Below, one piece after another: positions 11,350 through 51,540 of a stretch of DNA of 64,000 bases; position 1 is the first letter of the stretch, and each line of letters opens with the position of its first letter. This DNA comes from an uncultured delta proteobacterium. Lineage in GTDB: Bacteria > Desulfobacterota > Binatia > Bin18. Below the pieces are notes generated by a model. That model saw nothing but the letters and a program-made list of their open reading frames with translations. It searched no databases and was not told the origin of the DNA. The stretch is from the NCBI GenBank assembly GCA_963733195.1, contig CAVTCR010000074.1:96001-160000 (forward strand). Reading direction: 5' to 3'. The position numbers and the translations under genes were made by a program.

Positions 11350-11425
11350 GAAATGAAGAGTGAAGAATGACTGATTTTCTCATCTTAATTCTCAACTCTT
11401 AACTCTTCATTCTTAACTCTTCTCT
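11350..11425. repeat. Heptamer-periodic imperfect hairpin
   Basis: aaatgaagagtgaagaatga ... tcttaattctcaactcttaactcttcattcttaactctt; overlaps the end of the upstream gene. Confidence 0.6.
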
Positions 11426-12660
11426 TTCCTGTCCCATCCGCGCCATAAGCCCAGCAATAGCCCACATGACAATAACGACTTCGGCGTCGCCGAAATTGTG
11501 CTGCGTCAGACCACCAATCAGAAAGCCGATGATACTGAGAAAGGCGCCTAGAATCATGCTGCGGAACGGTTCATCCCCGGGAGGTATACATTGATAGGTT
11601 TCCCATCCCAGACGAAGCAACGACCAGAAGAAAAACAGAAAGGCTGCCAATCCAAGTAGACCGATATCGACTCCCACTTGGAGAAAAGTGTTGTGCGCAT
11701 GGCCAGTGTGATCCGCCTGCGGATGCTGTTCGTAGAAGGGATCGCGGAATTTGCGATAATTCCCATAGCCCCACCCTAGCAATGGTCGCTCCTTGATCAT
11801 CTCGATATTTGCTTGCCAGATATGACTCCGTGGGAGGTTCTGAACAAAATCGAAGGTTGACTGGAAACGCTCCTGGACGCCTGCTCCGGCAGTGATGAGA
11901 AAAAGACCAAAGACGAGCACCCCACCCGTCACCCCGGCCAACGTTTTGCCACCACGGATAACTCCGAGAAGAAACAACACGACAAGGTAGGCCAACCACA
12001 CCCCACGAGTCAGAGAAAATAACAGGGCAAACACCATCAAGCTCCATCCTACCGTAAGCAACAGTCGTTGGCGGAGTGCAAGCCCTGCACCTGACAACCA
12101 AACCGTCATAAACGTTAGAGGAAACAACAGATTGTGAGCAAAAGTAATCCCGGAAGGGTGAAAGCCTTTTGTACGCCATCCCTCGTCCTGCCCAAACCAG
12201 AAGGGGTCGAGTGAGGGCGGTTTCCCACGTAACTGTTTGTTGAGATCGATTCCCGTGTAGTGCTGTACGATGCCATACGCAGCGACCACACTTGCCACTA
12301 TCGCCAACAGCGAGATAAGGCGTTCAACGTCTTTGGGCTTCTGGATCAGTGTTGCCGTGACAAAGAATGCACCGACCAACCACAGCTTCCGATACCCAAG
12401 CAGTGAGTTTCCTACCGCAGGACAGAACACCGTCGAAAGCAGGAACGCACTAAACAGTAGAAGGAGTGGACGATCAAGCGCTGTTGTCGGCCACCGCCGT
12501 TCTCGCCAACAAAGTATCGCACTCACCACAAGCACAAAGGGCAAGTGATCCTTGCTGAAAAGCAACCGGTAACGAGAACGTAGCAAAGAACAATGACAGG
12601 AATACAAAGGGCGTCAACTTGGAACTGAGAGTTATCCCAGTAACACGCGGCACTCGTTCA
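11399..12660 (-). CDS. O-antigen ligase / oligosaccharyltransferase family membrane protein, 5' frameshift
   Basis: SLTRGVW, PLLGWGYGNY, HAHNTFLQ motifs. The N-terminal TM segment (TPFVFLSLFFATFSLPVAFQQ) is in another frame; start approximate. Confidence 0.85.
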
Positions 12661-14103
12661 CACTCCCTTGCGTGTTAACATCACCTTCACGGTTTCGGCC
12701 ATTATCCGCATGTCTAACCACAAGGAGTAATTGTAAATATACGCAAGATCATATTTGAGTTTGTATTCTGCTGTCGTGTGGTATTCACCATTCACTTGCG
12801 CGAGTCCAGTGAGTCCAGGTTTGACTTGCAAACGTTCGGCGTATCCTGGAATCGTCCGCAAGAATCCCTCGACGAATTCTGGGCGCTCGGGTCGTGGACC
12901 GACCAAACTCATTGTGCCATTCAATACGTTAAAGAGTTGTGGAAGCTCGTCAATACGCATGGCCCGCAAGAAACGACCTACAGGCGTGATTCGTTCGTCA
13001 TCCGCTCCTGCAAGTACCGGCCCAGTTGTGGCCTCTGCTCGATCGACCATCGTACGCAGCTTGTACATCACAAACTCTTTACTGTCGCGCCCAACCCGGC
13101 GTTGACGATAGAACGTCGGCCCAGCCGATGTGAGTTTGATACAACACACGGCGACACATAACACAGGCAGGCTGAGCAGCAAAAGCACCGCCGCAATCCC
13201 AACATCCACCACTTCCTTGATAAGGAACGCGAGGTCCTCCTGTGGGTCTTTCAGGACTTCCACCAACGGCACATCGTGCAACCGTAACGTTGATACGCGA
13301 CCGACTAAAATGTCATATACTGACGGTACCACTAACACCCGAGGACGGTCCTCATTCTCTCGCCATCCGCCCGAAGAGCGTACCAAACTATCGATAAACG
13401 AATCTTTCCAGGTCGGCTGTGAAAGAAGAATCACCTCCTCGATACTATGTTGACGCATGAGTTGAGGAAGATCCTCCACACTACCGAGCCATGGCACAGA
13501 TGGGTGCGCGGCGACCGGTGTCGGTCCATCAACGGTCACCAATCCGACCAGTATCAGCCCCGGCGTATGGAAAACTTCTGGGAGTCCAGCTAAGAAGGTA
13601 CGGAGTTCCTCTGTCGCACCAACCAACAGCACACGAAGTGGTCGCACGCGCGCGAGCCAACGCACTACCCATATGCGAAGGATCGTCACTCCCACGGTAT
13701 TGAGTATCCATAACAAGACAAGCACAGAGCGGGGAAAGAACAGATCGCCCCGGAAAAAATACCACGCGGATGTCGCGAGCAACTGCACGCCTAACGCTGC
13801 TGCAACATTGGTCACTAATCGTGTTCGATGCACCAAAGCGTGAAGGTCGTAAAAACCAAAAAAGTACAGCAGAATGATTTGTGACGCTGCAAGGATGAAC
13901 AACGGATGATTGACTTCGGTAAAACGAACCGATGGTAGGAGATCTGCGGTAAAAGGGAACGACACATGAATACGCAGCGCAAAAGCGAGGAGGTAGACCA
14001 AGAGGACGCAGAGAATATCTGCCAGCATCAAGACCAGCAGCGTGGTCTGGTACCGTAGTGTCGGTCGTCGTACTGTTGTCCCTGCTAGGGCAGTGTCTGC
14101 CAT
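12658..14103 (-). CDS. Initiating polyprenyl-phosphate sugar-1-phosphate transferase (WcaJ/WbaP-like)
   Basis: N-terminal TMs; YKLRTM, RIDELPQLFNVLNGTMSLVGPRPERP, KPGLTGLAQV. Confidence 0.95.
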   Translation of the reverse strand: MADTALAGTTVRRPTLRYQTTLLVLMLADILCVLLVYLLAFALRIHVSFPFTADLLPSVRFTEVNHPLFILAASQIILLYFFGFYDLHALVHRTRLVTNVAAALGVQLLATSAWYFFRGDLFFPRSVLVLLWILNTVGVTILRIWVVRWLARVRPLRVLLVGATEELRTFLAGLPEVFHTPGLILVGLVTVDGPTPVAAHPSVPWLGSVEDLPQLMRQHSIEEVILLSQPTWKDSFIDSLVRSSGGWRENEDRPRVLVVPSVYDILVGRVSTLRLHDVPLVEVLKDPQEDLAFLIKEVVDVGIAAVLLLLSLPVLCVAVCCIKLTSAGPTFYRQRRVGRDSKEFVMYKLRTMVDRAEATTGPVLAGADDERITPVGRFLRAMRIDELPQLFNVLNGTMSLVGPRPERPEFVEGFLRTIPGYAERLQVKPGLTGLAQVNGEYHTTAEYKLKYDLAYIYNYSLWLDMRIMAETVKVMLTRKGV

Positions 14104-14113
14104 ACTGTGTTGT

Positions 14114-14944
14114 TTACAAAGGGGAAGGTGTATGAAGAGGCTGAACGTCTTCTAAACGACGATAGAGCCGCTGCCGAGAAAACAGGTACCGATGTTTCCA
14201 GAAGTAGTAGCTTATTCCCCACAGATGTTTCCAACTCAGCCCGGAAAATAATGAGCGCGCCACTCGGCGCTCCTTATGAATGACCACCGCCTCCGGGTTG
14301 TAGATCACCTGCCACCCAGCTTGTCGTAGACGCAAACAGAAGTCGACATCTTCTGGTCCATAAAAAATCTTCTCATCCAGCAGCCCTACGGTCATCAGTG
14401 CTTCACGACGAATGACTTGGCACGCACCAATCACATAGTCAACTGCACGGATGGAACTATGATCCCATTCGGCCATCTCGGTCTCGCGTCGAAGTTGCTG
14501 GACCTTCGCGACTGGCATCTGTCGTGCAAGCTTATCGAGCAGTGTCGGATAAAAACGACAAGTGAGATGGAGTTGCCCTTCAAGGTCAGTAAGTTTCGGC
14601 GCACACAGCCCCACTCGGGGATGAGTATTCATATAGGCAATGAGACGATCGAACGCGCTGGGTTCCACAGCAGTGTCGTCATCAAGCAGGATAATATATT
14701 CCCCTTGTGCAACTCTGATGCCTTGATTCCGTCCGGGAGCAACGCCACGATTGTCTCTGTTCACCATGAGTTGCATCCACGGAAACTCAAAACGTAAAGA
14801 AGCAGGAGTATATCCACGCGAGCCGTTATCGACGACAAGGACTTCATACGGACAGGTAGTGATAGCCTGCGGAAGAGACAGCAAACATCCACGCAAGAGG
14901 TCCGTCGAGTTCCACGTCAGAATTACAATCGAAGCTTTGATCAC
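14114..14944 (-). CDS. Glycosyltransferase family 2 (rhamnosyltransferase-like)
   Basis: SIVILTWN, VVDNGS, LLDDD, GPEDVDFCLR; likely GTG start at 14944. Confidence 0.9.
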   Translation of the reverse strand: MIKASIVILTWNSTDLLRGCLLSLPQAITTCPYEVLVVDNGSRGYTPASLRFEFPWMQLMVNRDNRGVAPGRNQGIRVAQGEYIILLDDDTAVEPSAFDRLIAYMNTHPRVGLCAPKLTDLEGQLHLTCRFYPTLLDKLARQMPVAKVQQLRRETEMAEWDHSSIRAVDYVIGACQVIRREALMTVGLLDEKIFYGPEDVDFCLRLRQAGWQVIYNPEAVVIHKERRVARSLFSGLSWKHLWGISYYFWKHRYLFSRQRLYRRLEDVQPLHTPSPL

Positions 14945-14949
14945 TACTG

Positions 14950-15961
14950 TTACCCCCTCCACCCTTTCGTCGATGAGAACGGACGATACAAAGAGTAAAA
15001 ATCTTTGCGAGTTAACGCCAGTCGTGCCCACAGACGCGCGACACCCTTGATCCCCAAAGACAGCAGCACCAATGGATATTCACGGATAGAGAGTGCGCGC
15101 CAGAAATGCGGCCAGTGGTACTGAGCAATCGGCCCCGCAACGAGCAGCTTCCTATGCTCTCGCAGAATCTGCAGCTTCCCACCCTCTGTTCGTACTCGTT
15201 CGGCAAAATAATCGCGCCATGTCATTGGAGGTACGAAAAAAACCTGCGCATGCAGTTCTTTAGTCATATGCGACCGACCGACCGCCACTGTTAGCCATGC
15301 GTCTTCGAGCAAGAGATTGTCTGGAATTCCATTCGGAAGCACAGTTTTACGCAGCAAGAGCAGTCGTCCTCCAGCATTGCCAAAATTAAAGCGGTAGGGA
15401 ATCGCGCCCATCCGACCCCACAGGGTACCACCATCGGGCAGAAATGGGACTTCCTGTGCGGCAACCAAGTTCAGCGTAGGCTCTTGCTGCATTCGTGTAT
15501 AGAGCGCGTACACAGAGTTACGGTCAATTCGCACATCCGCATCAGAAAAAAGCACCATGGTCCCCTGTGCCCATCGCCAGAGGGTGTTCCAGGCTGGAGG
15601 TTTGCCCTTACGTTCGGTCAGTAAGATAGTGCAACGAGGAAAGGTTCTCGGTCCCCTCTCCTCTAGTGGGAAAGGGACAGGGCGAGGGGACCTATACTCG
15701 TCCCCTGCCCCTTCCTCATACTCTACCCACATTTCCTCACACTTCACCTGGTGCCGCTGACAAAACTCACGCATCGCCGTTAATGGGACGCATTCTTCTC
15801 CTAAGCGAATGCCATTGATGCAAATCAGTAGCTCAGTAATGAGCCCTGCGGGCAACCGCTGATGCAGGCATGCTTCGTGCACGCTTTCTAAGTGTTGTTC
15901 TGAGTCCAGGCTCACTCCCACGACAGGGAATAGCAATTGATAAGGAGTCTTGTATAAGCAT
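14950..15961 (-). CDS. Glycosyltransferase family 2, frameshift near 15890, with in-frame palindromic insert
   Basis: N-terminus MLIQDSLSIAIPCRG in one frame continues into the 328-aa ORF with GKPPAWN, FSDADV, LLEDAWL. Confidence 0.75.
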
Positions 15962-16006
15962 CGTCCTCAGCCGAAACCCCTGACATTGGCACACACTACA
16001 CGAATA

Positions 16007-16102
16007 CCGCTCGTGCTGAGCGTAGCCCGAAGGGCGGAGTCGAAGCATGCGTTGTTAACCAATACCTTCATCCTTCGACTTCGCTTCGCTCAGGACGAAC
16101 GG
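16007..16102. repeat. REP-like inverted-repeat element
   Basis: ccgctcgtgctgagcgtagc...gtcgaagcatg pairs with catccttcgacttcgcttcgctcaggacgaacgg. Confidence 0.8.
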
Positions 16103-16133
16103 AGCAACTATCCATCAGCGTAGTGTACGAATA

Positions 16134-17480
16134 TTATGAGATTTGATCGATAAGCTTACGATAGTATCCTTCGATTGCTTCAGCATCGGCTGCAATAGAC
16201 TGAACCGGAGGAAAGTGCTGCGATAGTTTCCCCACCAACGAGGGATCGGTGATGAACCGCTCCAAAGTCCGACGCAAATCCCCAACATCGCGCGGGCGGA
16301 AGAGCAAGCCATTCACACCATCCTGTATCCACTCCGGCATGCCACCGAAGGCAGCTGTCACAACAGGTTTTTTCGCTAGAAACGCCTCACGGATAACCAG
16401 TGGGGCGTTCTCGTACCAGATCGACGGAACTACCACGACATCGACCTCTCCGAGAATGCGCCCAACCTCATGATGCTCGTAGCGTCCCATCATACGGATG
16501 TGGGGGGAACTACGAAGCTGAGCAAGGAACTGTGCTCGGTCCGGATAAGGAGCGTAGTCAGCTTCGCCACCGTAAATACGCAGCTCTGCTCCTGTTAACG
16601 GGACAGCAGCCTCAACTAGGTGATGAACGCCTTTCACCGGGTCAACAACTCCAATATAGCCAAAGATCACAGGATCATGGGGCTGCCGTTTTCTGCCATT
16701 CTGGAGCATCATCGGTGGTAGCCCACACTCCGCAAAGAGAATCTTTTCCGATGGAATACCGAACGCCAAGAACTGTTCTCGGAGGAATTGCGACGGCGCC
16801 AGAAAGAGTGATACAGCTTTACAGATCTCACGGATATGCGCCATACGTTGAGCAATCTGCAAGCATGCCTCAGCCGAAGGTCGGCGATGAGTAACGTACT
16901 TTGCATATACCCAACGGAGCCGATCTCTCAACCAACGATGTTTTCCCGGGGCGAGCCTCAGTTTTTGATATATTGGGATCAGTTGCCTAGACAGCAGATA
17001 TCCAAAACAGCGCGCGCATCCCTCATCCGTTTGACCTGAACACACCGAAAGATCAGGCTTGAGAAATCGACCACGCTGGCAGATGAGCCAGTAATCGTGC
17101 AGGGTCATCACAACTGGGATTCTTCGTCGTGCAGTCTCCTCAACGCAAGTGGTCGAAAGATACATCAAGTGATGGAAGTGTACGACCTCTGGGGTGACAG
17201 CATCCAGGAAAGCGCTAAATTGCTCAGCAATGTCTGGATTGAGATAACTCCGGGTAAAGGTATTGAGGCGGGTGAAGGTGTTATTGACTCTCGTCACTGG
17301 CAAACCGTCGTAGCTAACCGTATCTACTGCACCCTCAGGTCGGTGGGGGTCATTCACGCGGGTGAAGACCTGGACCTCGTGCCTACGACGACGCAGTGCA
17401 GTAGCCAAGTGCGCTGCATACATCTCCGTCCCACCTAAACTTTCTGGTGGCATGCCTTGGACAACATGGAGGATCTGCAC
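16134..17480 (-). CDS. Glycosyltransferase family 4
   Basis: ILHVVQGMPP..GGTE, TLHDYW, KGVHHL, PSIWYENAPLVIREA. Confidence 0.93.
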   Translation of the reverse strand: MQILHVVQGMPPESLGGTEMYAAHLATALRRRRHEVQVFTRVNDPHRPEGAVDTVSYDGLPVTRVNNTFTRLNTFTRSYLNPDIAEQFSAFLDAVTPEVVHFHHLMYLSTTCVEETARRRIPVVMTLHDYWLICQRGRFLKPDLSVCSGQTDEGCARCFGYLLSRQLIPIYQKLRLAPGKHRWLRDRLRWVYAKYVTHRRPSAEACLQIAQRMAHIREICKAVSLFLAPSQFLREQFLAFGIPSEKILFAECGLPPMMLQNGRKRQPHDPVIFGYIGVVDPVKGVHHLVEAAVPLTGAELRIYGGEADYAPYPDRAQFLAQLRSSPHIRMMGRYEHHEVGRILGEVDVVVVPSIWYENAPLVIREAFLAKKPVVTAAFGGMPEWIQDGVNGLLFRPRDVGDLRRTLERFITDPSLVGKLSQHFPPVQSIAADAEAIEGYYRKLIDQIS

Positions 17481-17572
17481 GAGTGATATCCTTTTCCTTC
17501 TCTTCTATACCCAAACGGCACGGACAGCAGAAGAAGTGCCTTCCGGAAACATTGTTGTCCGTGGTTATCACC

Positions 17573-18481
17573 TCAGAGTGCCGTTCCCTTTGTTGGAGAA
17601 GGGTGGGTGCGAGAGGGTCCGTACAACTGTTCCCCGTCGCGGTGCCCTTTCTTATACCAGTAGATTCGGTTCAGAGCGAACAGGGGGTAACGACACAGCG
17701 CCACAAACTCGCGCTTTTGCCATAACTCACGTATGGTTTTATGGCTGCGTCCAATCATCGCGGCAAGTGAGGACTGCGATGGCGAGGATGCGGCTTGTGG
17801 ATCAGGTACCTTGTGTCGTAAGGCGAGATATTGCCCCATCAGTCCCTCCTCATACCAGCGTCTCCGCCAGTAACGAAGCAATGGCGGGTGGCTATGGAAC
17901 ACGCTCGCATCGTGGACGTACCGAATAATGTACGGTGCCGGAAGCGTATAGGCCCACAGAAAATCTTCTCCTGAAGATGTTTCTTCATCGAACGGGACAT
18001 CCTGCCACACACTTTTCCGCACCGCACTATTGGCATTGGAGAACGACGCCCGGACGGTGTTGTCAGCTTGGAGCGTATACGACTGCTCCAATTCTCGCTC
18101 TTCGAGCGGATTTACTCCTGGTATGGGCTTCTGTCGGCCATAGGTCGCCACTACCAGTGCGTTATTCGTGAATGGGGTTACCAATTCTCGCAACCAGGAA
18201 CGAGAACACGGCACACAGTGGGCCGAGAGAAACACAACATATTCACCATGAGCTAATGAGGCTCCGTGATTGAGCGCAAAACCGAATGTGAACTCGCCCG
18301 TAGGGATTTCCTCCAGTCGTACCGGAAAGCCACGCACAATCTCCACTGTCCGGTCTTTCGACCCTGAGTCTAGTACGATCACCTCATACTGTTCAGTAAA
18401 CTCCTGCTCCAAAACCCTTTGTAGCACTGAGCCGATGAAGTGCTCTTCATTTTTGCTGCGAATGACAATCGATACCCTCAT
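17573..18481 (-). CDS. Glycosyltransferase family 2
   Basis: VSIVIRSKNE, LDSGSKD, FSNANSAVR, GEDFLWA. Confidence 0.9.
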   Translation of the reverse strand: MRVSIVIRSKNEEHFIGSVLQRVLEQEFTEQYEVIVLDSGSKDRTVEIVRGFPVRLEEIPTGEFTFGFALNHGASLAHGEYVVFLSAHCVPCSRSWLRELVTPFTNNALVVATYGRQKPIPGVNPLEERELEQSYTLQADNTVRASFSNANSAVRKSVWQDVPFDEETSSGEDFLWAYTLPAPYIIRYVHDASVFHSHPPLLRYWRRRWYEEGLMGQYLALRHKVPDPQAASSPSQSSLAAMIGRSHKTIRELWQKREFVALCRYPLFALNRIYWYKKGHRDGEQLYGPSRTHPSPTKGTAL

Positions 18482-18518
18482 GGCCAACATCCGCAGAACA
18501 GGAAACATGCGACTCGCT

Positions 18519-19250
18519 TCACAGCGGTTTCTTAAACAAAGTCACGCAATCCTGATTTGGGGTATCCCAATCAATAATTTGGGATTTGACAACTTCAAGT
18601 CCTTCTTTGGCGCAGTAGTGGTGAAAAAGGTTTTGTGACATAAAGTTTCTCCACCCAGGATTGTCATGAATATTCCCTGTGGGATTCTTGTCGTAGTTCG
18701 AGTAGTGGCAAAACCCGTATCCACCAGGCTTCAGAACACGGTAGAAGTCGTGCAAATACGAACGAACAACATCACTGTCAAAATGGCCCATCGCATCGAA
18801 ACAATAGACCAGAGAGACTTCACCACTCGGAATACCGCTCAACGTAAAGCCGTCATTCTGGATGTAAGTGATTTTCTTCTCTGTGGCAAAGCGTTGCTGG
18901 CAAAAGCGAATGTTATCTGCATTGATGTCAACCAGGTAGAGTTTCTTAGCTAACTCTAAAAGCTTTCTTGTGTTGCGACCATGACCGGCCGCCAAATCAA
19001 CCACACAGGAAAAGTCACACCCCTGAATAAACGGCCAGACCGTTTGGCTCCACGCCTGCTCGATCCACTGCTCCGCAGACTCGTAATAGTCTAAAGCAAC
19101 ACGAGAGTGTCCCTTCCAGTCTTCTCCGACTTCCCCTGCCCATTTCGTCAGACGTTCTCGATCTGGAAGAAAACTCGTGAGAGAATGCTCAACAGTAGAG
19201 GTTTTGAGCTTTTGCTTGCTTCTACTCCACAAACCACGTAAACGTCTCAT
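18519..19250 (-). CDS. Class I SAM-dependent methyltransferase
   Basis: VVDLAAGHGR, VDIN, RVLKPGG. Confidence 0.9.
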   Translation of the reverse strand: MRRLRGLWSRSKQKLKTSTVEHSLTSFLPDRERLTKWAGEVGEDWKGHSRVALDYYESAEQWIEQAWSQTVWPFIQGCDFSCVVDLAAGHGRNTRKLLELAKKLYLVDINADNIRFCQQRFATEKKITYIQNDGFTLSGIPSGEVSLVYCFDAMGHFDSDVVRSYLHDFYRVLKPGGYGFCHYSNYDKNPTGNIHDNPGWRNFMSQNLFHHYCAKEGLEVVKSQIIDWDTPNQDCVTLFKKPL

Positions 19251-19966
19251 GCAGATTTTTCCCTATCCTCGATCATCCCCCGACCCTGCCAACCAGAAAG
19301 GCCATTGATGTGCTCCCTGTTTCGCACGAGCGGCGTGTCCAGTTCGGCAGGGTGAGACAAGGTATGGTGGTCTCTCTCGGTTCCGCTCTGTGACGAAGGA
19401 GCGAACCGTAAGAGCCGTAAGCCACCCCACACGACCGGCTTTCCCATGTGAATGTCCTCTGTTCTCGTCGCATCTAACGAGAGCAGGCCACAGTCTATGA
19501 ATGGGAGGTGTTTGCACGCTTCATCGATCGCCTCTTGGACTTCAAAGTAGTGGACATCATGAAAAAGCACATAACTGCCTTCATGCACGAAAGGGCTCAC
19601 CGCCTCGATATCGCGTAGCACCCCACTATAGGTGTGATCTCCGTCTACAAAGATGAAATCAAAAGGCGACCCAAGCAATTCATGAGCCTTCGTAACTGCC
19701 TCCGGAGAAGCGGCGCTGAGGAAAGAAACTCGATGTGAGAGGTGTGCGAAGTGGTCCGGGGTAACCTGCGGAGCCGGATCAACACAGACGAGTCGTCCAC
19801 TTCCCACAGCATCCATAGCCGCACAGATGATCATCGCCGCGCCTCCTTGAGCTGTACCAATTTCCAAGACGGAGGCAGGCCGCAACCCATAGATAAGGGA
19901 GTACAAGAGAAATCGCTCTGGCATCGTTAAGTGTGCAGGGGCATCATAAATGATCTGGACTGACAT
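19247..19966 (-). CDS. Class I SAM-dependent methyltransferase (Methyltransf_24-like)
   Basis: VLEIGTAQGG, FDFIFVDGDH, FHD. Confidence 0.9.
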   Translation of the reverse strand: MSVQIIYDAPAHLTMPERFLLYSLIYGLRPASVLEIGTAQGGAAMIICAAMDAVGSGRLVCVDPAPQVTPDHFAHLSHRVSFLSAASPEAVTKAHELLGSPFDFIFVDGDHTYSGVLRDIEAVSPFVHEGSYVLFHDVHYFEVQEAIDEACKHLPFIDCGLLSLDATRTEDIHMGKPVVWGGLRLLRFAPSSQSGTERDHHTLSHPAELDTPLVRNREHINGLSGWQGRGMIEDREKSA

Positions 19967-20006
19967 CTCACTTTCCTTTTGCTGGTAGGACGATTCTCCT
20001 CATGGC

Positions 20007-22475: not shown

Positions 22476-22477
22476 GC

Positions 22478-25148: not shown

Positions 25149-25155
25149 AGAGTGC

Positions 25156-27453: not shown

Positions 27454-27549
27454 GCAGTCGGCATGAACTTCTCAGCGGCAGTGTCACGTGGACGAGTATT
27501 TGACTTTGCGGTAGTGACGTGCCGAGCTATGTTTTATACGAAAGTCGCT

Positions 27550-31863: not shown

Positions 31864-31897
31864 ATCTCCTTCCTGTGACATCAGGGTGCTCTCTCTT

Positions 31898-33040: not shown

Positions 33041-33092
33041 AGCGGTTGTTGGCCTTCATGACGGCCATACGGGGTATTCGACAAACCAATAG

Positions 33093-35351: not shown

Positions 35352-35372
35352 TTCTGTAGCGACTTTGATGGC

Positions 35373-35401
35373 AAAAAAAAGGGCGGGGATGTTCCCCGCC
35401 C
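35373..35401 (-). terminator. Rho-independent terminator after the hidden secreted-protein gene
   Basis: Minus strand GGGCGGGG-AACAT-CCCCGCCC followed by T8. Confidence 0.88.
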
Positions 35402-35438
35402 ACGTGTTCACAACATAACGACCCGCAGCAATACGCAC

Positions 35439-38693: not shown

Positions 38694-39494
38694 TTAGAGA
38701 AGATCGGCAAACTCAGGTTCCAGTCGTGAAAAGACCCAGTGCCCAGAGAGCAACACCACAGCCGTCCACACACAGGGCGTCCCCAAGTCCGCAAGAGCGG
38801 GCAGGGTCCCTTCAAGGAGAATGGCACGATAGGAAGAAACGATCGGGGTAAACGGATTCCAGTGCCACACGGTCATAAACCGGGAAGGAACATACGACAA
38901 CGGATAAATGATCGGCGTCAAGTAAAACCACACCATGAAAACCATCTGCAGGACCGGAAGCGTATCCCGCAACAGCGTCTGCACGCTCGCGGCGATCAGT
39001 CCAAACCCAAACGCGAGAGCCGTTTGTAAACATAACAATACCGGGAGGAGTGGCAGACTCACCCATGCCAGCCGTCCTGTCACTAATAGTGCGACAAGCA
39101 AGACGCTGAAACTGAGCACAGAAGCAACAAGACTTGCTAAGATACTGCTCACCACCAGCACCACGGTAGGGAAGCGCATGGCTTTGACTAAGCTCGCATT
39201 ATCGATAATCGCCGTTGCCGCCTTGGTAACGCCTTCCTGAAAACCAAGCCACGGCAGAAGGCCGGCCAAGAGGTAAAAAGCAAACACTCCATGCCCGGCT
39301 TCAGTGGTAAACTTCACTTGCAGGATTGTGGAGAAGACAAACATATAGACCAAAAACAATAAGAGTGGCTGAAGGATTGCCCATGCCAGGCCAAGAACGG
39401 ATCCAGCGTAGCGAGCTCGGAGATCGCGGCGGACGAGCCCGGCAATCATCACTCGGTGTGTCCACATCTGCGCGAACATAAACATCTTCCCCAC
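38694..39494 (-). CDS. wzm: Polysaccharide ABC exporter permease
   Basis: RDLRARYAGSVLGLAW, FYLTPIIYP, NP motif, FADLL C-terminus. Confidence 0.93.
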   Translation of the reverse strand: MGKMFMFAQMWTHRVMIAGLVRRDLRARYAGSVLGLAWAILQPLLLFLVYMFVFSTILQVKFTTEAGHGVFAFYLLAGLLPWLGFQEGVTKAATAIIDNASLVKAMRFPTVVLVVSSILASLVASVLSFSVLLVALLVTGRLAWVSLPLLPVLLCLQTALAFGFGLIAASVQTLLRDTLPVLQMVFMVWFYLTPIIYPLSYVPSRFMTVWHWNPFTPIVSSYRAILLEGTLPALADLGTPCVWTAVVLLSGHWVFSRLEPEFADLL

Positions 39495-39539: not shown

Positions 39540-41256
39540 TTAGCCACTCTTTGCTTCGAGCATTCGCCGTTTATCTGCCCAGCGTGCTTCTGCTTCTTTG
39601 TCGCCACGCTCTTTTGCCACTGCTTCCAATCCTGCATACACTCCCGGAGAGTTTGGCATCAACGCCGCAGCCTGTTGGAAAAATTGCTCAGCAGTATCGA
39701 TATTTTTGAGCGCCAGGTTGACCCAACTGAGGAGATAGATGACACGAGGATTGCGCGGCGCAATTTGTTGCGCCTGAGACGCATAGTGAAAGGCTTGGCC
39801 GTAGTGGCCACTCTCAAAAGCGAGTTCTCCCAACCCAACAACGGCACCAGAGTGTTGAGGAGTAATGGCAAGTGTCTCCGCGAATTCGCGTGCAGCATCG
39901 GAGAATCGTTTTTGCCTTTTGTATACACCAGCGAGGTTATAGTGTCCCCGTGCGCTTTGCGGTGCGGTCCGAGTCACGACCGACCAAAAAGTTTCTTCGT
40001 TTACCCAATCACGATTGCGTACAATCGTCCTTAAGACTGCTCCTGTCAGCAGTGCCAGCACGAGTCCATACGCCGTTGCAGCTCGTATGCGTTCCCATCC
40101 TTGTCTCTTCGCTAGCCCTACACCACACAGCGCATCAAGCAGCACTCCGACGATTAAACAAAAACCAAACAACGGAACATAGAGATAATGTTCAGCAACG
40201 ATCTCTTTGATAGGAATAATATGCGAGAGCGGAAGAATGCTCACCAGCATCCACAACCCGCCATACCCACAGAGTGGAAACCTGCGCGCGAGCAGCGTCA
40301 AGCCGCCAGCAATACTCACAAGGATACCGAGAGCAAGCAACACGTCGGGTTGAGCGAATGAGGATGAGGCCGGAAAAGCATTGTACGAGTAATCGGCAAG
40401 GAGCGTACGTGGAAACACCATCAGACTCAGATCGTGGACCCAGATCCGCGCGACTGTGGCAAAATTCCCTTCGAGGCTCCCTCCGTACCACACCGAATTT
40501 CGAATGGTTGCCAAAAGGATCGCGCCGGAAAAATGCCACAACACTGCGCCCCCTAAAAGCAAGACGAAGAAATAGACTGCCCAACGCCGGCGGAGGGAGG
40601 CAACAACGCCTTCGTGCTGAACATCGTAGAGCCAGCACAGAAGGGGAAGGACGATCGCGCTTTCTTTACTAAGAATCCCGAGCCCATACGCAACACACGA
40701 CAACAACAGCCAGCCATAACGCCACCCGCTCGCACCCTCTGCGGCCCGAAAACGTAAGTAGGCCCACAGGCCGCAAAAGACACAGAGTCCGCCGAGGATA
40801 TCGCGCCGACCGGAAATGTACGTAACCGCATCGGTCAGTACAGGATGCAGCGCCCACAAGGCAGCAACAAACACGGCAGGACGCCACCGCCATTCGTTCT
40901 CAGGAATCACTGTCGTCGGCTGCGATTGCGTGCCCGATCTAGAGTTGGTTAGTCGGAGGGTAATAAAAAAGACGAAACAGGCAGAGAGCCAGTGATAGAA
41001 AAGATTGCTCAGGTGCAGCACCCACGGCTGCATCCCACCCACGCGCACATCGACGATGTAGGACAGATTACGAAACGGCCGATAGCCGAGAGATGTCGGT
41101 GACATGAGAAAGTGCGACAATGGACTGCGAACTCTGCACCACCGGATTCTCTACGACTAACATGTAGTCATCAAAAACAAACTCATTGCTCAGGGCATTG
41201 TAATAAGCAGCACCAATCGCCGCGGCAAGCACGAGACACACCAACAACTTCTTCAT
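39540..41256 (-). CDS. TMTC-like GT-C membrane protein with C-terminal TPRs; frameshift near 41120
   Basis: N-terminal FVFDD in the small upstream ORF, then YRP, ALHPVLTDAVTYISGR, SKESA, AEHYLY, RNRDW and TPR helices. Confidence 0.82.
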
Positions 41257-41287
41257 CACCTCCACCTCTCATGAATGGGCGACACGA

Positions 41288-43678: not shown

Positions 43679-44497
43679 TTACTCGCCATCTTCTTCTTCT
43701 TCTTCTTCCTCATTGTCGTCGCCTTCTGGGTTGGAATTCTCTCCCTGAGCCGCTGCTTCCTCGCGTGCAGCTCTGCGACGAATCCGACGTAAGCGCTGTT
43801 GCATTCTTTGAATATTGTCGCGCAATGCTTGCGCCTCTTCCGGTGCAGCTTGGGCAACGGCGGCTTGCTGGTTTGGATCAGCATCAGGCGCCTGAAGGAC
43901 TCGCCCAGCTGGTGGCCCAGGACGGCCCACCCTTGCGTTGGGCTGCACAACATTAGGGATGAGTCTTGGGGCTTGTTGCGAGGTTGCACTATCGAGAATC
44001 CGCAGTTGAAGAGGAACCACTTCTCCTCCTGCCCCAAGTGACAACTTCACCTCAGCCGCTGTCACCTGCAAGAGTTGATATTGCCCGATCGAGTCCCCTT
44101 GTTTCACACGGATAACTTTGTTTCCTTGCGAGGTATCCGAAAGGAACGCCTCAGCGCGGGAACGGGTAAGGACGATCCCCACGAGTTTCAAGTGTGCAGG
44201 CGGATCAATTTTCTTGGGACCTTCGTCTGTTGTGACAGGGGCTGGGGTCTCCCCCCGAGCAGGGGAGAACAAGTCATTCTGCGCAATCGTCGCCACATAG
44301 GCGCTCATGGCATCAGGTGTAAGAGTTGGGAGGGGCCCTCCGGCCTCCGAGAGAGCGGGTGGAGCATTCGTCGTCTCTATCGGGGGCGTGGGTAACGAAC
44401 GCCGCCATGTGGCAACGATCTTTCCACAGAGCATGAGAATGACTACTACTAACACTACGTGCAGAAGAGTACGAATACGCATGAGAATGCCACCCAA
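43679..44497 (-). CDS. GspC/PilP-like type II secretion accessory protein
   Basis: N-terminal TM, NDLFSPAR, LKLVGIV...VKQGDSIG HR-like domain, acidic tail; lies between gspM and gspD. Confidence 0.65.
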   Translation of the reverse strand: MGGILMRIRTLLHVVLVVVILMLCGKIVATWRRSLPTPPIETTNAPPALSEAGGPLPTLTPDAMSAYVATIAQNDLFSPARGETPAPVTTDEGPKKIDPPAHLKLVGIVLTRSRAEAFLSDTSQGNKVIRVKQGDSIGQYQLLQVTAAEVKLSLGAGGEVVPLQLRILDSATSQQAPRLIPNVVQPNARVGRPGPPAGRVLQAPDADPNQQAAVAQAAPEEAQALRDNIQRMQQRLRRIRRRAAREEAAAQGENSNPEGDDNEEEEEEEDGE

Positions 44498-45116
44498 TTA
44501 CGACGGGGGCCCTCCTTGCATGATGCCACTGACCTCGAGAGTAACCGTCAACGGGTTCGGCTTCGGCGCCCCGGCTTGCTGCATTCCAGCTATACGAATG
44601 TTATACGTTCCTCGGACTTCCAATGAAGAGACCATCAGTCGCCAGTCGCCATATTCAACAGCAGACACAAAGCGCCCTAACTCTGGCAAGCCTCCACGCA
44701 GAGTCATTTGCACGGTGGTCTTACGAAATTCACCTGCCGGTTCATCACGGAGTGACACCGTTGTCAGCACGTCAAGCCCACTACTGCGGGCAAGATTTTG
44801 TAATCGGTCCTGAAGTTGCGACGCCGCTAACGCAGGGGTTCCCCCAGGAATGAGATGTTGTCGAACATCCTGCACACGTTGGCGGAGTTGCGTCACTTGT
44901 TGTTCAATCTGTGGACCGCGATCGCGCTGACGCTCCATCTTCGCAACAAAGCTTGCTTGTTGCGCGATCTCATTCTCTAATTCTTCTGTATAGGCGCGAT
45001 AGGGTTTGACAATTCCGTACACGAAAATGACCAATAGCAAGGCAGCCCCGGCAATCCCAAGCAGCAACTCGTTCCCGTGGTGCGCGCCCCTGCCACAGTT
45101 GTTTTATTCTTTGCAT
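44498..45116 (-). CDS. gspM: Type II secretion protein M; frameshift near 45070
   Basis: MQRIKQLWQGRAPRER then a TM helix, coiled coil and ferredoxin-like C-terminus. Confidence 0.75.
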
Positions 45117-46519
45117 AGTTCTGTCTTTGCCCCCAGAGTGAAGGTCTCCCCTTGTGGAGTTGTCGTGAAAGGCGCCTTTGCCGTCACGTCCCGGAAGCAG
45201 GGAGAGTTTTCGAGTTGGGCAATGAGGTCAGCGGCAGACTGTGACCCAAGCCCACTCATTTCGACATCCCCTTCTTTGTAACGAAGATGGTTCAGATAAT
45301 ATTCCTTCGGGAAAAGTTCTGAGAGGGTTTTCACCACTGGAATCACTTTTTGTCGTGCCGTTCCATCGAGCAGTTGTAGTTGTTTTTGTAACTTAGAGAT
45401 TTCTTCTTCCTGAGTTTGAACTTGCTGGACCGGAGCTTCGAGCGCGGCACGCTGACGGGCGAGGTCTCTAAGGACACGGTGTTGCTGAAAAACAGAAACC
45501 ACAGTCCATAGAATGCCGAGCATGCCGATTGTTCCCACCAACACCAGTGTCAACGGAGAGAGTCGTTTTTCCCGCCGGGCTCGCCGCTCCTCAGGGAGCA
45601 AATTAATTCCTCCATTTCCTTCACCAATCGCTTGCAACGCTGCCCCTACAGCCGGAAGTGCAGGAGGCGGAAGCACGTCACCATCGCTTAACCCGAACTG
45701 TGTCGTCGCCAGTGCTTGCAAGTCGTGGTCAACACTCACAGTGAAGGGTAAAAAAGGGGCAGCAAAACACGAGAAGAGAGGGGTCTCTGCCGGAGAAGCC
45801 CCAGGAAAACTTCTGGTGATTACTTGTGCTACCAACTCGTCAAGCTCTTCTTTGCCAATCTCTGTAGCAATCGGAATCACTTGACTGGCCAGTAATCGCT
45901 TTCCCTTGATGCTATTCATCTCCATCGAGTCTGCTTCAGGAACAAGAAGGAGACGTGGCCCCGCAGTTGGGTCTCCGCAAAACGCGAGGGTGCTCGTCAA
46001 GGCCGAACAACTGAGCGTCACCATTTGTAGGCGTAACTGCGCTTGCAGCAAAATCCCGAGATACTCTTCAACTTCTTGACGAGAAAGACCAAAGACCGTC
46101 ACTTCGATGCGCTTCTCCTCGTGGCCAACATCCGAGGTTAGATAGTCGTAATACAAATCTTCTTTTGGGAAGGGGAACAGTTGATCAACCTGATAGCCAA
46201 TGACTTCGTGGATCACATCGCGAGCACTTTCTGGAACGACGATACGACTGACATACGCCGTACGGCGCGGCAATGAGAGTACCGCTTGATCAGGAGTGGT
46301 GTCGATGTCTTGTAAAAAACCATTGAGCGCGTGATCGAACTCATCAAGTCGCTCGCGGCCCGCCTCCGGCAGCGGCACAGTACGGGCATGACGTAACGAA
46401 ACGTTCATAAATCGTTTCATCACGTGTACGAAGCTGACATTATGCGTCCCTACCGCGATACCGACCCCGTGGAGAAAGTCGGCTTTCATCAGCCGCTGGA
46501 GAGTTGTATTTAGCTCCAT
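45104..46519 (-). CDS. gspL: Type II secretion protein L-like (PilM/PilN-type architecture)
   Basis: Actin-like cytoplasmic domain (LFPFPKEDLYYDY), INLLP motif, TM helix, PilN-like periplasmic domain. Confidence 0.75.
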   Translation of the reverse strand: MELNTTLQRLMKADFLHGVGIAVGTHNVSFVHVMKRFMNVSLRHARTVPLPEAGRERLDEFDHALNGFLQDIDTTPDQAVLSLPRRTAYVSRIVVPESARDVIHEVIGYQVDQLFPFPKEDLYYDYLTSDVGHEEKRIEVTVFGLSRQEVEEYLGILLQAQLRLQMVTLSCSALTSTLAFCGDPTAGPRLLLVPEADSMEMNSIKGKRLLASQVIPIATEIGKEELDELVAQVITRSFPGASPAETPLFSCFAAPFLPFTVSVDHDLQALATTQFGLSDGDVLPPPALPAVGAALQAIGEGNGGINLLPEERRARREKRLSPLTLVLVGTIGMLGILWTVVSVFQQHRVLRDLARQRAALEAPVQQVQTQEEEISKLQKQLQLLDGTARQKVIPVVKTLSELFPKEYYLNHLRYKEGDVEMSGLGSQSAADLIAQLENSPCFRDVTAKAPFTTTPQGETFTLGAKTELCKE

Positions 46520-46555
46520 GCTACTTCCATATTGCGGTTGCGGTTTAGGTGCGCA

Positions 46556-46972
46556 TTAGAACACATCGGCATTCAGTCCATCCCCTCCCGAGACCCCATC
46601 CGCTCCATATGAAAAGAGATCGAAGACCCCTTTCTCGCCTGGGCTGCGGTATACATACGCATTTTGCCACGGATCACGCGGGACTTCTCTATCCGCTCGC
46701 AGATAGGGGCCATCCCAACGATCCAGACCCGATGGTCGCTGGAGCAACGCCTGTAGTCCTTCTTGAGAATTCGGATAGCGACCGACATCAAGACGGAAGG
46801 CATCCAGGGCGGTCCGCAGCATCTCCATTTGCGTCTTCGCGATTTTTGGGTTCTGCTTCTCTCCTACCCCCAGCAAGTTTGGTGCAACTAATGCCGCCAA
46901 CAATCCCAGGATGAATACCACCACAAGAAGCTCGACGAGTGTAAACCCGGCCTGCATCACTCCTTTGTTCAT
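46556..46972 (-). CDS. gspG: Type II secretion major pseudopilin
   Basis: GFTLVELLVV prepilin site; LDAFRLDVGRYP, WDGPYL, DPWQNAYVY, SYGADG. Confidence 0.95.
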   Translation of the reverse strand: MNKGVMQAGFTLVELLVVVFILGLLAALVAPNLLGVGEKQNPKIAKTQMEMLRTALDAFRLDVGRYPNSQEGLQALLQRPSGLDRWDGPYLRADREVPRDPWQNAYVYRSPGEKGVFDLFSYGADGVSGGDGLNADVF

Positions 46973-46997
46973 AACCTTCCTCGCAGAATAGCGATTG

Positions 46998-48236
46998 CTA
47001 GAAACCCGCTTGGTTAATACTAAAAATCCCTTGTAACAAGCCAATAACGACAAAGCCGACAACGAGTCCCATCCCAAGGATAAGTGCCGGCTCTACCAAG
47101 GACACTAACTGTTTTAGTTGCGTATTCGTCTCCTTCTCGTAATACTCCGCCGTCCGCATCAACATTTCATCAAGCCGTCCAGTTTCTTCACCGACACTCA
47201 CCATTTGTAACGCCAGTGTAGGAAACGCGCCACTGCGCCCCAATGGCCCACTAATCCCTTGCCCTTCTCGTACGCCGCTTCGCACCTCTTTCAATGCGCT
47301 GCTGATCACTTGATTACTGACGACCGCTTCGACAACCTCAAGGGCCTGGAGTAAAGGGACTCCACTCTTCAGAAGAGTGCCTAAAGTCCGCGCAAAGCGT
47401 GCGACTTCTCGCTTGCGAATTAAGTCCCCTAAAAGCAACACCCGGAGTCGCCAACGATCCCAAGCAAACCGCCCGTGCGGGGTCGCAATATACCGATGTA
47501 AGGCCCATCCTATACTGACCACAATGAGAACTAAAACCCACCAATAGGCCTGAAACCATTCGCCTAAGTTTAATAGAAAGCGCGTCAGCACTGGGAGTGC
47601 AGGCCCCATGTCTTTGAAAATTCCTGCAAACTTCGGCAGAACGTACGTAAACATAAAGAATACGGACGAGCCACCGACAAAAACCAACATTGCGGGATAC
47701 GCCAGTGCTGCTTTGATTTGCTCTTGCACCTCCTGAGAACGTTCAAGATATTCAGCAAGTCGCTGGAGCACGGTGTCCAGAAATCCGCCAATTTCTCCAG
47801 CCTTGACCATATTGACGTACAAAGGGGGAAAAATCTTCGGATATTCTGCTAACGATTCTGACAACGACTTCCCTTGCTGCACTGTGCGCAAGATTTGGGC
47901 AGTCGCTTGCTTGAGCTCTTCTTTCTCAGTGAGGCCAGTCAATACCGACAATGCGCGGTCGAGCGGTAATCCTGACGAGATGAGCGTTGCTAATTCACGA
48001 GTAAAGATTTGTAGATCCTTTTGTCGGACTCTTCCTCGCCAGGGCAATTGAGGAAGCGAGAGTTGGCGCTGACCAGTCAGGGGCTTCGGCTGTGTCTCTC
48101 CAGGGGGTCGGATACGAAGAGGAAGGTAGCCCTGATCGCGCAGGCGCATGACCACTGTCCGTTCCTCACCTGCTTCCATAACGCCCTCAATCAGTTTTCC
48201 TTGTGGAGTCGTTGCTTGGTAGTGGAATTGTGCCAT
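46998..48236 (-). CDS. gspF: Type II secretion inner membrane platform protein
   Basis: FTRELATLISSGLPL, YVNMVKAGEIGG, ALAYP, VGEETGRL, LVEP. Confidence 0.95.
   Translation of the reverse strand: MAQFHYQATTPQGKLIEGVMEAGEERTVVMRLRDQGYLPLRIRPPGETQPKPLTGQRQLSLPQLPWRGRVRQKDLQIFTRELATLISSGLPLDRALSVLTGLTEKEELKQATAQILRTVQQGKSLSESLAEYPKIFPPLYVNMVKAGEIGGFLDTVLQRLAEYLERSQEVQEQIKAALAYPAMLVFVGGSSVFFMFTYVLPKFAGIFKDMGPALPVLTRFLLNLGEWFQAYWWVLVLIVVSIGWALHRYIATPHGRFAWDRWRLRVLLLGDLIRKREVARFARTLGTLLKSGVPLLQALEVVEAVVSNQVISSALKEVRSGVREGQGISGPLGRSGAFPTLALQMVSVGEETGRLDEMLMRTAEYYEKETNTQLKQLVSLVEPALILGMGLVVGFVVIGLLQGIFSINQAGF

Positions 48237-51468: not shown

Positions 51469-51540
<72 letters not shown>

Follow-up and report, generated by a model that had tools for sequence, protein, structure and literature searches.

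We analyzed a 64,000-nucleotide stretch of DNA from an uncultured soil bacterium of the Binatia group (assembly GCA_963733195.1, contig CAVTCR010000074.1, positions 96,001 to 160,000; hereafter the window), in which genes for protein export, genes for sugar-chain assembly, and a gene for an uncharacterized exported protein lie side by side. Together they form a conserved envelope locus of roughly 45 kb. We tentatively interpret it as a pathway for a lipopolysaccharide (LPS)-type O-polysaccharide combined with a dedicated type II secretion system (T2SS) along with its surface cargo, which would work most like the A-layer locus of Aeromonas. A preliminary description, made from the DNA letters alone, had proposed one functional pathway that glycosylates and secretes a specific surface protein. 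The notion of one pathway gains from the conserved linkage, from a second, reduced T2SS, from a cargo with a signal peptide and its own terminator, and from the Aeromonas analogue, but nothing that we found supports the protein-glycosylation part.

Gene order of the locus and its conservation in relatives

Genes were called from an open reading frame (ORF) listing and from Pfam and NCBIfam scans with translation table 11. Read from high to low coordinates, the locus begins with gspF-G-L-M-C-D, continues with a gene for a GT-C-type glycosyltransferase (GT) with TPR repeats, wzm, genes for an FG-GAP protein and a small lipoprotein, the broken cargo gene and wzt, and ends with glycan genes, a gene for a polyprenyl-phosphate hexose-1-phosphate transferase (PHPT), and one for a Wzy_C protein. 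Over most of the run the genes overlap or are spaced by 21-45 nt. From gspF to the ligase-like gene, Pfam and NCBIfam bore out the preliminary gene list almost item by item, as well as its placing of nearly all genes on the minus strand; one GT gene and the PIG-L gene are on the plus strand. The features are as follows.

46998-48290, minus: gspF, T2SS inner-membrane platform (Pfam T2SSF, 219 bits; TIGR02120, 428.4 bits, cut-off 424)
46556-47077, minus: gspG, major pseudopilin (T2SSG, 123 bits, and N_methyl; TIGR01710, 152 bits, cut-off 88.85)
45104-46519, minus: gspL-like gene of the fused PilM/PilN type (PilN, 36.4 bits; PilM_2, 22.2 bits, under the cut-off)
44498-45067, minus: gspM (T2SSM_b, 60.3 bits; NF040576, 86.8 bits, cut-off 60)
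43679-44497, minus: GspC-position protein, named by position only, with one N-terminal membrane helix
41288-43639, minus: gspD, secretin (N0 and Secretin_N on one piece, Secretin on another; TIGR02517, 203 and 195 bits on the halves)
39540-41265, minus: GT-C-type membrane glycosyltransferase with C-terminal TPR (TPR families; PMT_2, 24.2 bits, cut-off 26.1)
38694-39494, minus: wzm, ABC-2 permease (ABC2_membrane, 58.5 bits; weak KpsM and Wzm matches below the cut-offs)
37407-38666, minus: FG-GAP beta-propeller protein (FG-GAP_3, 107.6 bits; signal peptide; probable lipobox, read by eye)
36908-37381, minus: small lipoprotein of 157 amino acids with an NTF2-like fold (no family match in Pfam or NCBIfam)
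35439-36751, minus: broken copy of a gene for a secreted protein with two beta-sandwich domains (the cargo gene, or "orphan")
35381-35401, minus: intrinsic terminator directly 3' of the broken cargo gene (9-pair stem with 8 G-C pairs, then 8 T)
34122-35438, minus: wzt, ABC ATPase with a C-terminal extension (ABC_tran, 76 bits; Wzt_C, 23.8 bits, E 4.7e-5, cut-off 30.4)
14114-34100, minus unless marked: glycan assembly block (Pfam), made up of the GT, methyltransferase, GNAT, and PIG-L genes that follow
33093-34100, 31898-33040, 25156-27453, 22478-25148, and 20007-22475, minus: GT genes
17573-18508, 16134-17480, 14950-15936, and 14114-15031, minus: GT genes
27370-28716, plus: GT gene, the sole one on this strand
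30733-32064, 19247-19966, and 18519-19250, minus: three methyltransferase genes (Pfam)
29741-30670, minus: GNAT (Pfam)
28713-29771, plus: PIG-L deacetylase (Pfam)
12658-14103, minus: PHPT initiator (Bac_transf, 217 bits; TIGR03025, 394 bits, cut-off 295.55)
11399-12607, minus: Wzy_C family ligase-like membrane protein (Wzy_C, 81.5 bits)
7750-11297, minus: two MsbA-like ABC exporters, conserved flank (TIGR02203, 449.7 and 405.4 bits, cut-off 602)
48375-52621: upstream flank with LLM oxidoreductase, GSU2086-family protein, gmhA, 5S rRNA, tRNA-Gly(CCC), and lpxA (plus)

The linkage of these genes is conserved far beyond the window genome. With 14.2 kb of the window as a DNA query, matches were found in 21 of 26 genomes. 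We mapped proteins in seven regions (from genomes G002, G004, G006, G011, G015, G025, and G031, which belong to families f1, f2, and f8), and in all seven gspF-G-L-M-C-D is followed within a few kilobases by wzt and/or wzm. Synteny in relatives had been named in the preliminary description as a check, and the T2SS proved to stand beside wzm/wzt throughout the three families, with the adjacency reaching f2 and f8 at 30-50% protein identity. The order from gspF to wzt is collinear in G002 and G006, and also in G010 as far as the cargo gene, within which the G010 contig ends; the full order gspD, GT-C, wzm, FG-GAP, lipoprotein, beta-sandwich protein, wzt is present in G002 and G006. A profile of the cargo family retrieved 18 loci from GTDB, seven of them in the cluster context, whole or cut by a contig end (three of the seven, L074, L079, and L081, repeat contigs of G006, G001, and G010). 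The remaining loci are scattered paralogs or distant relatives of the N-terminal domain.

The most distant mapped order is that of G031 in family f8, where gspD is followed by GT-C/TPR, wzm, wzt, a small lipoprotein, a 343-amino-acid protein, a BNR-propeller lipoprotein, and a second large membrane protein. At its N-terminus, the 343-amino-acid protein matches the cargo-family profile over 93 columns (hhalign probability 83%, E 8.5e-6), and the pairing of a small lipoprotein with a beta-sandwich protein recurs in two families. The flanks are conserved as well. The lpxA / gmhA-GSU2086 flank lies upstream in four mapped regions, in the same order in G002, G011, G015, and G025, and the distal end (GT2s, PHPT, Wzy_C, two ABC exporters, and the aminopeptidase that lies beyond the MsbA-like exporters in the window) is kept in G004, G006, and G015.

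The T2SS genes of the window belong to a second, reduced system. GspF, GspG, and GspM pass the NCBIfam equivalog cut-offs (428/424, 152/88.85, and 86.8/60 bits), and the secretin GspD has its N0, Secretin_N, and Secretin domains, split over different frames. The gspL-like protein shares 78% identity with its G002 counterpart. The GspC-position protein has zero matches to Pfam or NCBIfam families and is kept at the same place in all seven mapped regions. The true start of gspG is probably internal to its ORF, because the N-methylation motif occupies residues 42-64. In the genome as a whole there are four secretin genes and six strong genes for GspE/PilB-type ATPases, besides weaker matches, with none of the ATPase genes near the window. 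GspE-class genes lie on contigs C81 and C19, and C81 also carries T2SSK/J genes. The GspE equivalog cut-off is passed by two ATPases, one on C81 and one alone on C19 beside lepB and lepA. Contig C81 has a complete gspE-F-G-J-K-L-M operon with a secretin gene about 20 kb further on; hence the window set is the second and reduced one. The C81 system spans G000:C81:159493-169100 and about 182500-184900 (L066, L067; G000 is the window genome), and its L and secretin genes are each split by a frame change.

Likeness to the Aeromonas A-layer and the case for mere neighbors

For A. salmonicida A450 and A. hydrophila AH-1, two reports (PMC4483657, PMC4413209) place sps T2SS genes and vapA between wzm and wzt of an ABC-2-type O-antigen cluster, with vapA, the surface layer (S-layer) gene, directly upstream of wzt. 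As described there, wzt mutants lose O-antigen, vapA mutants keep it, and the A-layer is LPS-tethered to the cell. These two were the only primary reports found in a literature search joining wzm, wzt, S-layer, and type II secretion. The Binatia and Aeromonas loci are alike in having T2SS genes and a gene for a 45-50 kDa secreted protein inside or against an ABC-transporter O-antigen cluster, in the separation of wzm from wzt, in the position of the surface-protein gene immediately upstream of wzt, and in the presence of a further T2SS in the genome.

The differences are considerable. The two loci belong to different phyla, and the gene upstream of wzt is not an open frame in the window. The Binatia T2SS genes lie upstream of wzm, not between wzm and wzt, and lack E, H, I, J, and K. 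The Binatia cargo is multi-copy and has no detected relation to known S-layer proteins, VapA not being among the sequences compared. The Binatia locus also adds the GT-C/TPR protein, the beta-propeller lipoprotein, the NTF2-like lipoprotein, and the PHPT initiator. By analogy, we regard the Binatia locus as a putative variant of the Aeromonas A-layer design, a likeness of gene content and arrangement, any lattice, tethering, or secretion on the Binatia side being hypothetical.

Such a locus would work as follows. PHPT would start the glycan chain on polyprenyl phosphate, the ten GTs, three of them GT4+GT2 fusions, would extend it, and the methyltransferases, deacetylase, and acetyltransferase would modify it. 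Wzm/Wzt would export the chain, and the only WaaL-type candidate of the genome would join it to lipid A-core. Between the glycan and T2SS halves lies a module of the GT-C/TPR protein, the beta-propeller lipoprotein, the NTF2-like lipoprotein, and the self-terminated gene for the cargo of about 45 kDa. The cargo would cross the inner membrane by Sec and then fold in the periplasm, as its conserved cysteines suggest. It would leave through the adjacent T2SS (F, G, L, M, C, D), for which genes in other parts of the genome would supply the ATPase and the minor pseudopilins, and the O-polysaccharide would hold it on the cell surface.

Several points weigh against this interpretation. Export of the cargo by the window T2SS, its surface location, and its anchoring by the glycan are steps that we infer. 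Genes for gspE and the minor pseudopilins (GspH-K) were not found in the window. Cysteines are conserved in the cargo family, which matched none of the known S-layer proteins in Pfam/NCBIfam and Foldseek searches, with no VapA sequence compared, and most of its copies are unlinked to glycan or T2SS genes (L070, L073, L076, the copy on C71 of the same genome, and that on C212 of G002). Frame changes in the window's cargo gene are about 80 times denser than the background, and a true pseudogene in this strain is possible. In G011, gspD is directly followed by wzt with no cargo gene between them. In G015, the interval between gspD and wzm/wzt contains genes for coiled-coil proteins, for another member of the small lipoprotein family, and for a 560-amino-acid secreted protein; the 560-amino-acid protein was considered as a cargo homologue and rejected, as hhalign aligns the signal peptide only (probability 0.9%). 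The aminopeptidase, LLM oxidoreductase, and GSU2086-family genes of the flanks, with no evident link to the locus, are equally syntenic across f1, so that common descent by itself may explain some of the conserved linkage.

These points bear on a competing explanation, which we consider somewhat unlikely: the genes would be neighbors without a shared task, an LPS O-antigen cluster standing beside a T2SS by descent, and the FG-GAP, lipoprotein, and beta-sandwich proteins would be unrelated envelope proteins or accessories of glycan processing. It would account for the equal synteny of unrelated flank genes, for the genes between gspD and wzm/wzt that vary among genera (G015, G011), and for the scattering of cargo-family paralogs. 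It sits less well with an adjacency that persists to f2 and f8 at such low protein identity. In f8 the small lipoprotein and a secreted protein related to the cargo family again stand beside wzt, arranged differently, and this recurrence speaks for selection on the grouping. Moreover, Aeromonas provides a working example of a T2SS, a surface protein, and wzm/wzt grouped in this way (PMC4483657, PMC4413209). The part of the preliminary description that concerned linkage of the cargo gene itself in relatives was borne out in G002, in G006, and in the retrieved loci mentioned above, but not in G011, which has no cargo gene, nor in G015, where an unrelated protein takes its place, and most copies are elsewhere.

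Two observations on the variable interval can be added. Between wzt and wzm, G015 has a carbamoyltransferase gene (Pfam), and its N-terminus is near-identical, by eye, to a sequence in G011. The coiled-coil proteins of G015 (genus g8; L042:14991-15821 and L042:18656-19510) are two membrane-anchored, highly regular repeat proteins encoded between gspD and wzt.

State and family of the cargo gene

The preliminary description had treated 35439-36751 as a readable gene for a secreted orphan protein, the third of three exported-protein genes between wzm and wzt. The other two, for the FG-GAP protein and the lipoprotein, are intact; the third is broken. Its longest minus-strand ORF is at most 105 amino acids, all three kinds of stop occur in every frame, and frameshift-aware alignment with three intact relatives gave 14-15 frame changes and 1-2 stops. 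The FG-GAP gene, by the same type of alignment with G002, has 0 frame changes. Nor is the gene an orphan, since it belongs to a multi-copy family with paralogs in the same genome and intact members in relatives. An intact 439-amino-acid paralog is encoded on contig C71, the same-genus genome G002 has a 416-amino-acid homologue and, at the exact position of the cargo gene, an intact 433-amino-acid ortholog, and the gene is intact at the same position in L068, L069, L072, L074, and L075 as well. Two other explanations for the missing frame were rejected. An alternative genetic code does not account for it, as TGA, TAG, and TAA stops occur alike in each frame and the neighbors read under table 11, and a non-coding RNA is not indicated, as Rfam at the gathering level gives only the 5S rRNA and one tRNA in the whole window.

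Frame breaks are not confined to the cargo gene. The secretin gene gspD lies in three frame pieces (43639-42602, 42399-42142, and 42109-41291; frames -1/-2/-1) when compared with the intact proteins of G002 (801 amino acids) and G010 (777 amino acids). The GT-C gene lies in two frames, with a change near 41124 and one extra base relative to G002 and G010, and the GT4+GT2 gene at 22478-25148 changes frame near 23375 relative to a G002 protein of at least 826 amino acids. The counterparts of these three genes are whole in G002, G010, and G006. A flanking gene, that of the GSU2086 family, has a frame change near 50440-50530.

We searched the whole window genome with 200 ORFs of at least 250 amino acids from 400 kb of G002. 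Matches were found for 185 of the 200, and for 152 of them the best match had at least 55% identity. Among these 152 likely orthologues, 116 are in a single frame over at least 90% of their length, 23 extend over two or three frames, and 13 are otherwise partial. Over 204.8 kb, 27 frame changes were counted, which gives a genome-wide rate of one per 7.6 kb. Named by the Pfam matches of the G002 queries, the split genes include those for rpoB (two changes), rpoC, EF-Tu, Hsp70, UvrD, and PurH, at 86-98% identity (examples are at C71:133065-141280, C71:144509-145697, and C19:4455-6375 of G000). Genes such as rpoB, rpoC, tuf, and dnaK cannot be pseudogenes, and hence the assembly is laden with errors. 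Homopolymers were rejected as the source of the frame changes, runs of five or more being present in 0 of 21 junction windows vs 7% of random windows. At the genome-wide rate, 4.7 frame changes are expected in the cluster outside the cargo gene and 4 are seen, so these breaks are ordinary assembly faults. Genes that appear broken in this assembly should accordingly not be called pseudogenes without reads.

The cargo gene stands apart, with 14-15 changes in 1.3 kb vs 0.17 expected from the background. With frames followed, 263 of 420 aligned codons (63%) are identical to the G002 ortholog, in the same range as the intact neighbors (FG-GAP protein 64%, lipoprotein 54%). The other family copies in the assembly, on C25 and C37, are likewise frame-broken, and two of three copies are whole in G002. 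In three other assemblies, contigs stop within the cargo gene. Four read runs were examined, which come from related strains, mostly 90-99% alike, and not from the source. In run X1, contigs break inside the cargo gene, where the depth is 49.6 vs 13.8 on the upstream flank. Such breaks of short-read contigs indicate that the gene is hard to assemble. Taking five indels and nine substitutions from the X1 strain, about 96% alike, over 35439-35690 gave a single open frame, which corresponds to the last 84 cargo codons and closes in the conserved C-terminus of the family. Because of the kept identity, the broken C25 and C37 copies, the contig breaks, and the frame repaired with X1, we lean towards a locally bad consensus over a repeated gene.

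The alternative is that the locus is decaying, with the cargo gene, gspD, the GT-C gene, and one GT gene being true pseudogenes of a system no longer used. Four frame-broken genes in one run, and above all the excess in the cargo gene, would fit such decay. We consider it very improbable, given that the same kind of break occurs in rpoB, rpoC, tuf, and dnaK, that the number outside the cargo gene fits the background, and that the cargo gene has kept an identity in the range of its intact neighbors; the broken paralogs and the difficulty of assembly point the same way. Overall, the breaks in the cargo gene, gspD, the GT-C gene, and the GT gene are most likely assembly faults rather than gene decay.

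The superfamily to which the cargo belongs is large and unnamed. No Pfam or NCBIfam family matches the cargo. A protein search found 143 relatives without a Pfam domain; the few named ones are called 'hypothetical protein' and come from metagenome-assembled genomes (MAGs) labelled Candidatus Binatia or Deltaproteobacteria. We built a superfamily profile from 40 members and searched 1.84 billion representatives, counting matches as clusters at 50% identity. This yielded 1238 clusters at E ≤ 0.001, of which 555 reach E ≤ 1e-10 and no more than 23 reach E ≤ 1e-30. In many of the matches, which are long proteins, the N-terminal module is repeated 3-7 times. Among 29 superfamily members scanned, 25 are without a Pfam domain; PKD, Calx-beta, or P-domain modules are present in the others. 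Within the class, 14 of 151 genomes have a cargo-family match at E ≤ 1e-5; full-length members are found only in the taxonomic family of the window, and relatives of the N-terminal domain, often in tandem, in four other families. Tandem arrays of two to four genes, whose products of 430-570 amino acids share only the N-terminal domain with the cargo, were noted at G135:C2:117527-121987 and on G125:C1, G061:C15, and G085:C538.

In a tree of 12 family members and one distant row, with partial copies and the window's broken copy left out, the backbone is unresolved. The C71 copy, the G002:C212 copy, and L070 form a lineage of their own (support 86/90). Linkage to the cluster takes 2 changes on the tree and 1 in 22% of the bootstrap trees; a single origin of the cluster-linked copies is compatible with these sequences but not demonstrated by them. 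The same terminator element follows the cargo gene in G002, and the C71 paralog also has a long hairpin.

The cargo relatives carry a signal peptide, and the protein is about 45 kDa. An AlphaFold2 (AF2) model (predicted local distance difference test score, pLDDT, 78.4; predicted template modelling score, pTM, 0.82) has a signal peptide and two beta-sandwich domains. The N-terminal domain resembles TM1070 (PDB 1nc7; Z 9.4, root mean square deviation (rmsd) 2.9 over 112 residues, identity 12%) and the Anabaena sensory rhodopsin transducer (PDB 2ii7; Z 5.6, rmsd 3.0 over 95 residues), with galectin/CBM-type sandwiches at Z 4-5. The likeness to TM1070 and the transducer is one of beta-sandwich fold; these proteins differ in being small and cytoplasmic, and the shared fold shows no function. 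Foldseek with the cargo model found 34 PDB matches at E ≤ 0.001, with TM-scores of at most 0.21 except for the small 1nc7 domain and with no whole-protein match. A search of the ESM Atlas gave unnamed 'hypothetical protein' clusters only.

Relatives of the small lipoprotein encoded beside the cargo gene align across f1, f2, and f8. Its AF2 model (pLDDT 76.9) has its best structural match at Z 13.1 (rmsd 2.7, 102 residues), and 98 chains reach at least Z 8, those listed being mostly NTF2-like. Prediction of its binding to the cargo gave a score of 0.59, with 0.00 for the best of three controls; at least 63% of the contacts agree between runs, and the partner pLDDT is no lower than 79. Of 157 solved complexes, 116 reach the mark for binding, as do 2 of 215 mismatched pairs. 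Just 18 of the 157 solved complexes reach it with a score of at most 0.60, and both of the passing mismatches fall in that range. The models thus lend weak support to binding of the cargo by the NTF2-like lipoprotein.

Ligase, GT-C/TPR enzyme, and the glycan half

The glycan half contains the components of an ABC-transporter-dependent O-polysaccharide pathway, namely Wzm/Wzt, the PHPT initiator, and the 10 GT genes (three with GT4+GT2 fusions by Pfam). The true start of wzt is probably near 35340, the alignment with the G002 Wzt beginning at 35339; the best NCBIfam matches of the window ATPase are the TagH and galactan-Wzt models, below their cut-offs. Genes for lpxA (316 bits, cut-off 226), gmhA, and the two MsbA-like exporters flank the block. 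The Wzy_C protein has only sub-threshold NCBIfam matches: IctB at 73 bits, PEP_O_lig_1 at 40.7 (cut-off 188.1), RfaL at 37.8 (cut-off 277), and TfpM at 23.1 (cut-off 600). A sequence search against the PDB gave 0 matches at E ≤ 1. These scores do not assign the protein to WaaL or to the O-oligosaccharyltransferases. Of the three Wzy_C matches in the genome, the other two belong to a Wza/Wzc-type exopolysaccharide locus on C73, which by this sequence count leaves the window protein as the sole WaaL candidate detected in the genome. The C73 locus (G000:C73:165000-172000; L059) encodes an SLBB protein, a Wzz-GNVR-kinase, a frame-split Wzy_C polymerase-like gene, and a TPR protein, and lies beside a sigma-54 activator. 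The preliminary description had favored a glycan other than ordinary LPS O-antigen; the sole WaaL candidate and the lpxA, gmhA, and MsbA-like flanks speak against this, as does the Aeromonas glycan, which is a true LPS O-antigen.

Alternatively, the locus could serve protein glycosylation. The glycan would be built on a lipid carrier, exported by Wzm/Wzt, and moved to the beta-sandwich protein by the Wzy_C protein as an O-oligosaccharyltransferase, and/or single sugars would be added by the GT-C/TPR enzyme, and the glycoprotein would be secreted by the T2SS. A gene for GT-C with TPR indeed follows directly after gspD in G002, G006, G010, and G031, and GT-C homologues at 33-45% identity carry PF08409 (DUF1736) and/or PF13231 (PMT_2) in precomputed annotations, with several JGI entries among the sources that name them 'protein O-mannosyl-transferase'. 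The weak Wzy_C scores extend to the O-linking models PEP_O_lig_1 and TfpM as well as to RfaL, all far below cut-offs, and the combination of PHPT, Wzm/Wzt, and methyltransferases is the make-up of Geobacillus S-layer glycan clusters. We consider this explanation unlikely. The features tested do not separate an O-oligosaccharyltransferase from WaaL, and with lpxA/gmhA adjoining, a role on proteins only would leave the LPS without a ligase. The GT-C gene was not found in the mapped regions of G004, G011, and G015, where the T2SS and wzm/wzt remain linked. Nothing that we found supports glycosylation of the cargo, as had been claimed from the letters alone.

Three known systems help to place these enzymes. 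The E. coli O8/O9a type is an ABC-transporter-dependent O-polysaccharide pathway with a capped chain end. The window resembles it in Wzm, a C-terminal extension of Wzt, multi-domain polymerizing GTs, methyltransferases, and a Wzy_C ligase candidate. It differs in that Wzt_C is below the Pfam cut-off, that the initiator is PHPT and not WecA-type, and that no kinase/methyltransferase terminator is identifiable as such in the window. The slg clusters of Geobacillus/Paenibacillus make an S-layer glycan with WsaB as O-oligosaccharyltransferase, in Gram-positive bacteria without an outer membrane or a T2SS. Shared with them are PHPT, Wzm/Wzt, a methyltransferase, and a Wzy_C-family transferase near a surface-protein gene; the Binatia cluster differs in being flanked by LPS genes and in having the Wzy_C protein as the only WaaL candidate. 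TMTC / DUF1736 GT-C enzymes with TPR are O-mannosyltransferases, and TMTCs act on cadherin beta-sandwich domains in animals. The window enzyme is like them in its multi-pass N-terminal part and C-terminal TPR, and its homologues carry the families named above. It is itself under the Pfam thresholds for PMT_2 and DUF1736; PF08409 was not listed at E ≤ 0.001 for the window's or the G002 protein, and a sequence search against the PDB returned TPR proteins only.

A more elaborate scheme would combine these elements. The reduced T2SS would export the superfamily cargo, which would be O-glycosylated in the periplasm by the GT-C/TPR enzyme, handed on by the NTF2-like lipoprotein, and displayed on a methyl-capped O-polysaccharide. 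We regard this scheme as quite improbable. If true, it would be a bacterial coat pathway uniting protein O-glycosylation, T2SS export, and LPS anchoring at one locus. In literature searches joining DUF1736 with T2SS or O-antigen, no paper among the matches listed contained DUF1736.

Further features of the window lie outside the locus. The 5S rRNA gene and the tRNA-Gly(CCC) gene that follows it (51338-51542) lie between gmhA and lpxA, away from any 16S/23S gene, and this 5S is the sole 5S match in the 87-contig assembly. At 54889-55233 there is a 114-amino-acid protein with a Phage_holin_4_2 match (106.6 bits), and no other phage gene was noticed nearby. The G+C content of 58000-62200 is 0.59-0.63 vs about 0.52-0.55 elsewhere; this segment, which encodes an AAA_16 ATPase and several ORFs without a family match, may be acquired DNA. 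A weak IS66-transposase match lies at 63368-63736. At the other end, upstream of the aminopeptidase, 549-6502 encodes a transglutaminase-like protein, an ABC ATPase, a PF16949 'putative ATP-binding cassette' membrane protein, a hydrolase, and a CsgG-like lipoprotein.

Binatia occur widely and have not been cultured. In a literature search joining Binatota/Binatia with type II secretion or S-layer, no paper among the matches listed contained a Binatia term, and the Binatia papers listed are, by title and abstract, MAG or ecology surveys, none of them on the cell surface. If our tentative, Aeromonas-like interpretation is true, pairing a surface protein and an ABC-type O-antigen with a T2SS of their own would not be peculiar to Aeromonas but a design that recurs in a distant phylum with a different cargo. 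The locus would also offer a first point of functional entry into the dark superfamily of secreted beta-sandwich proteins.

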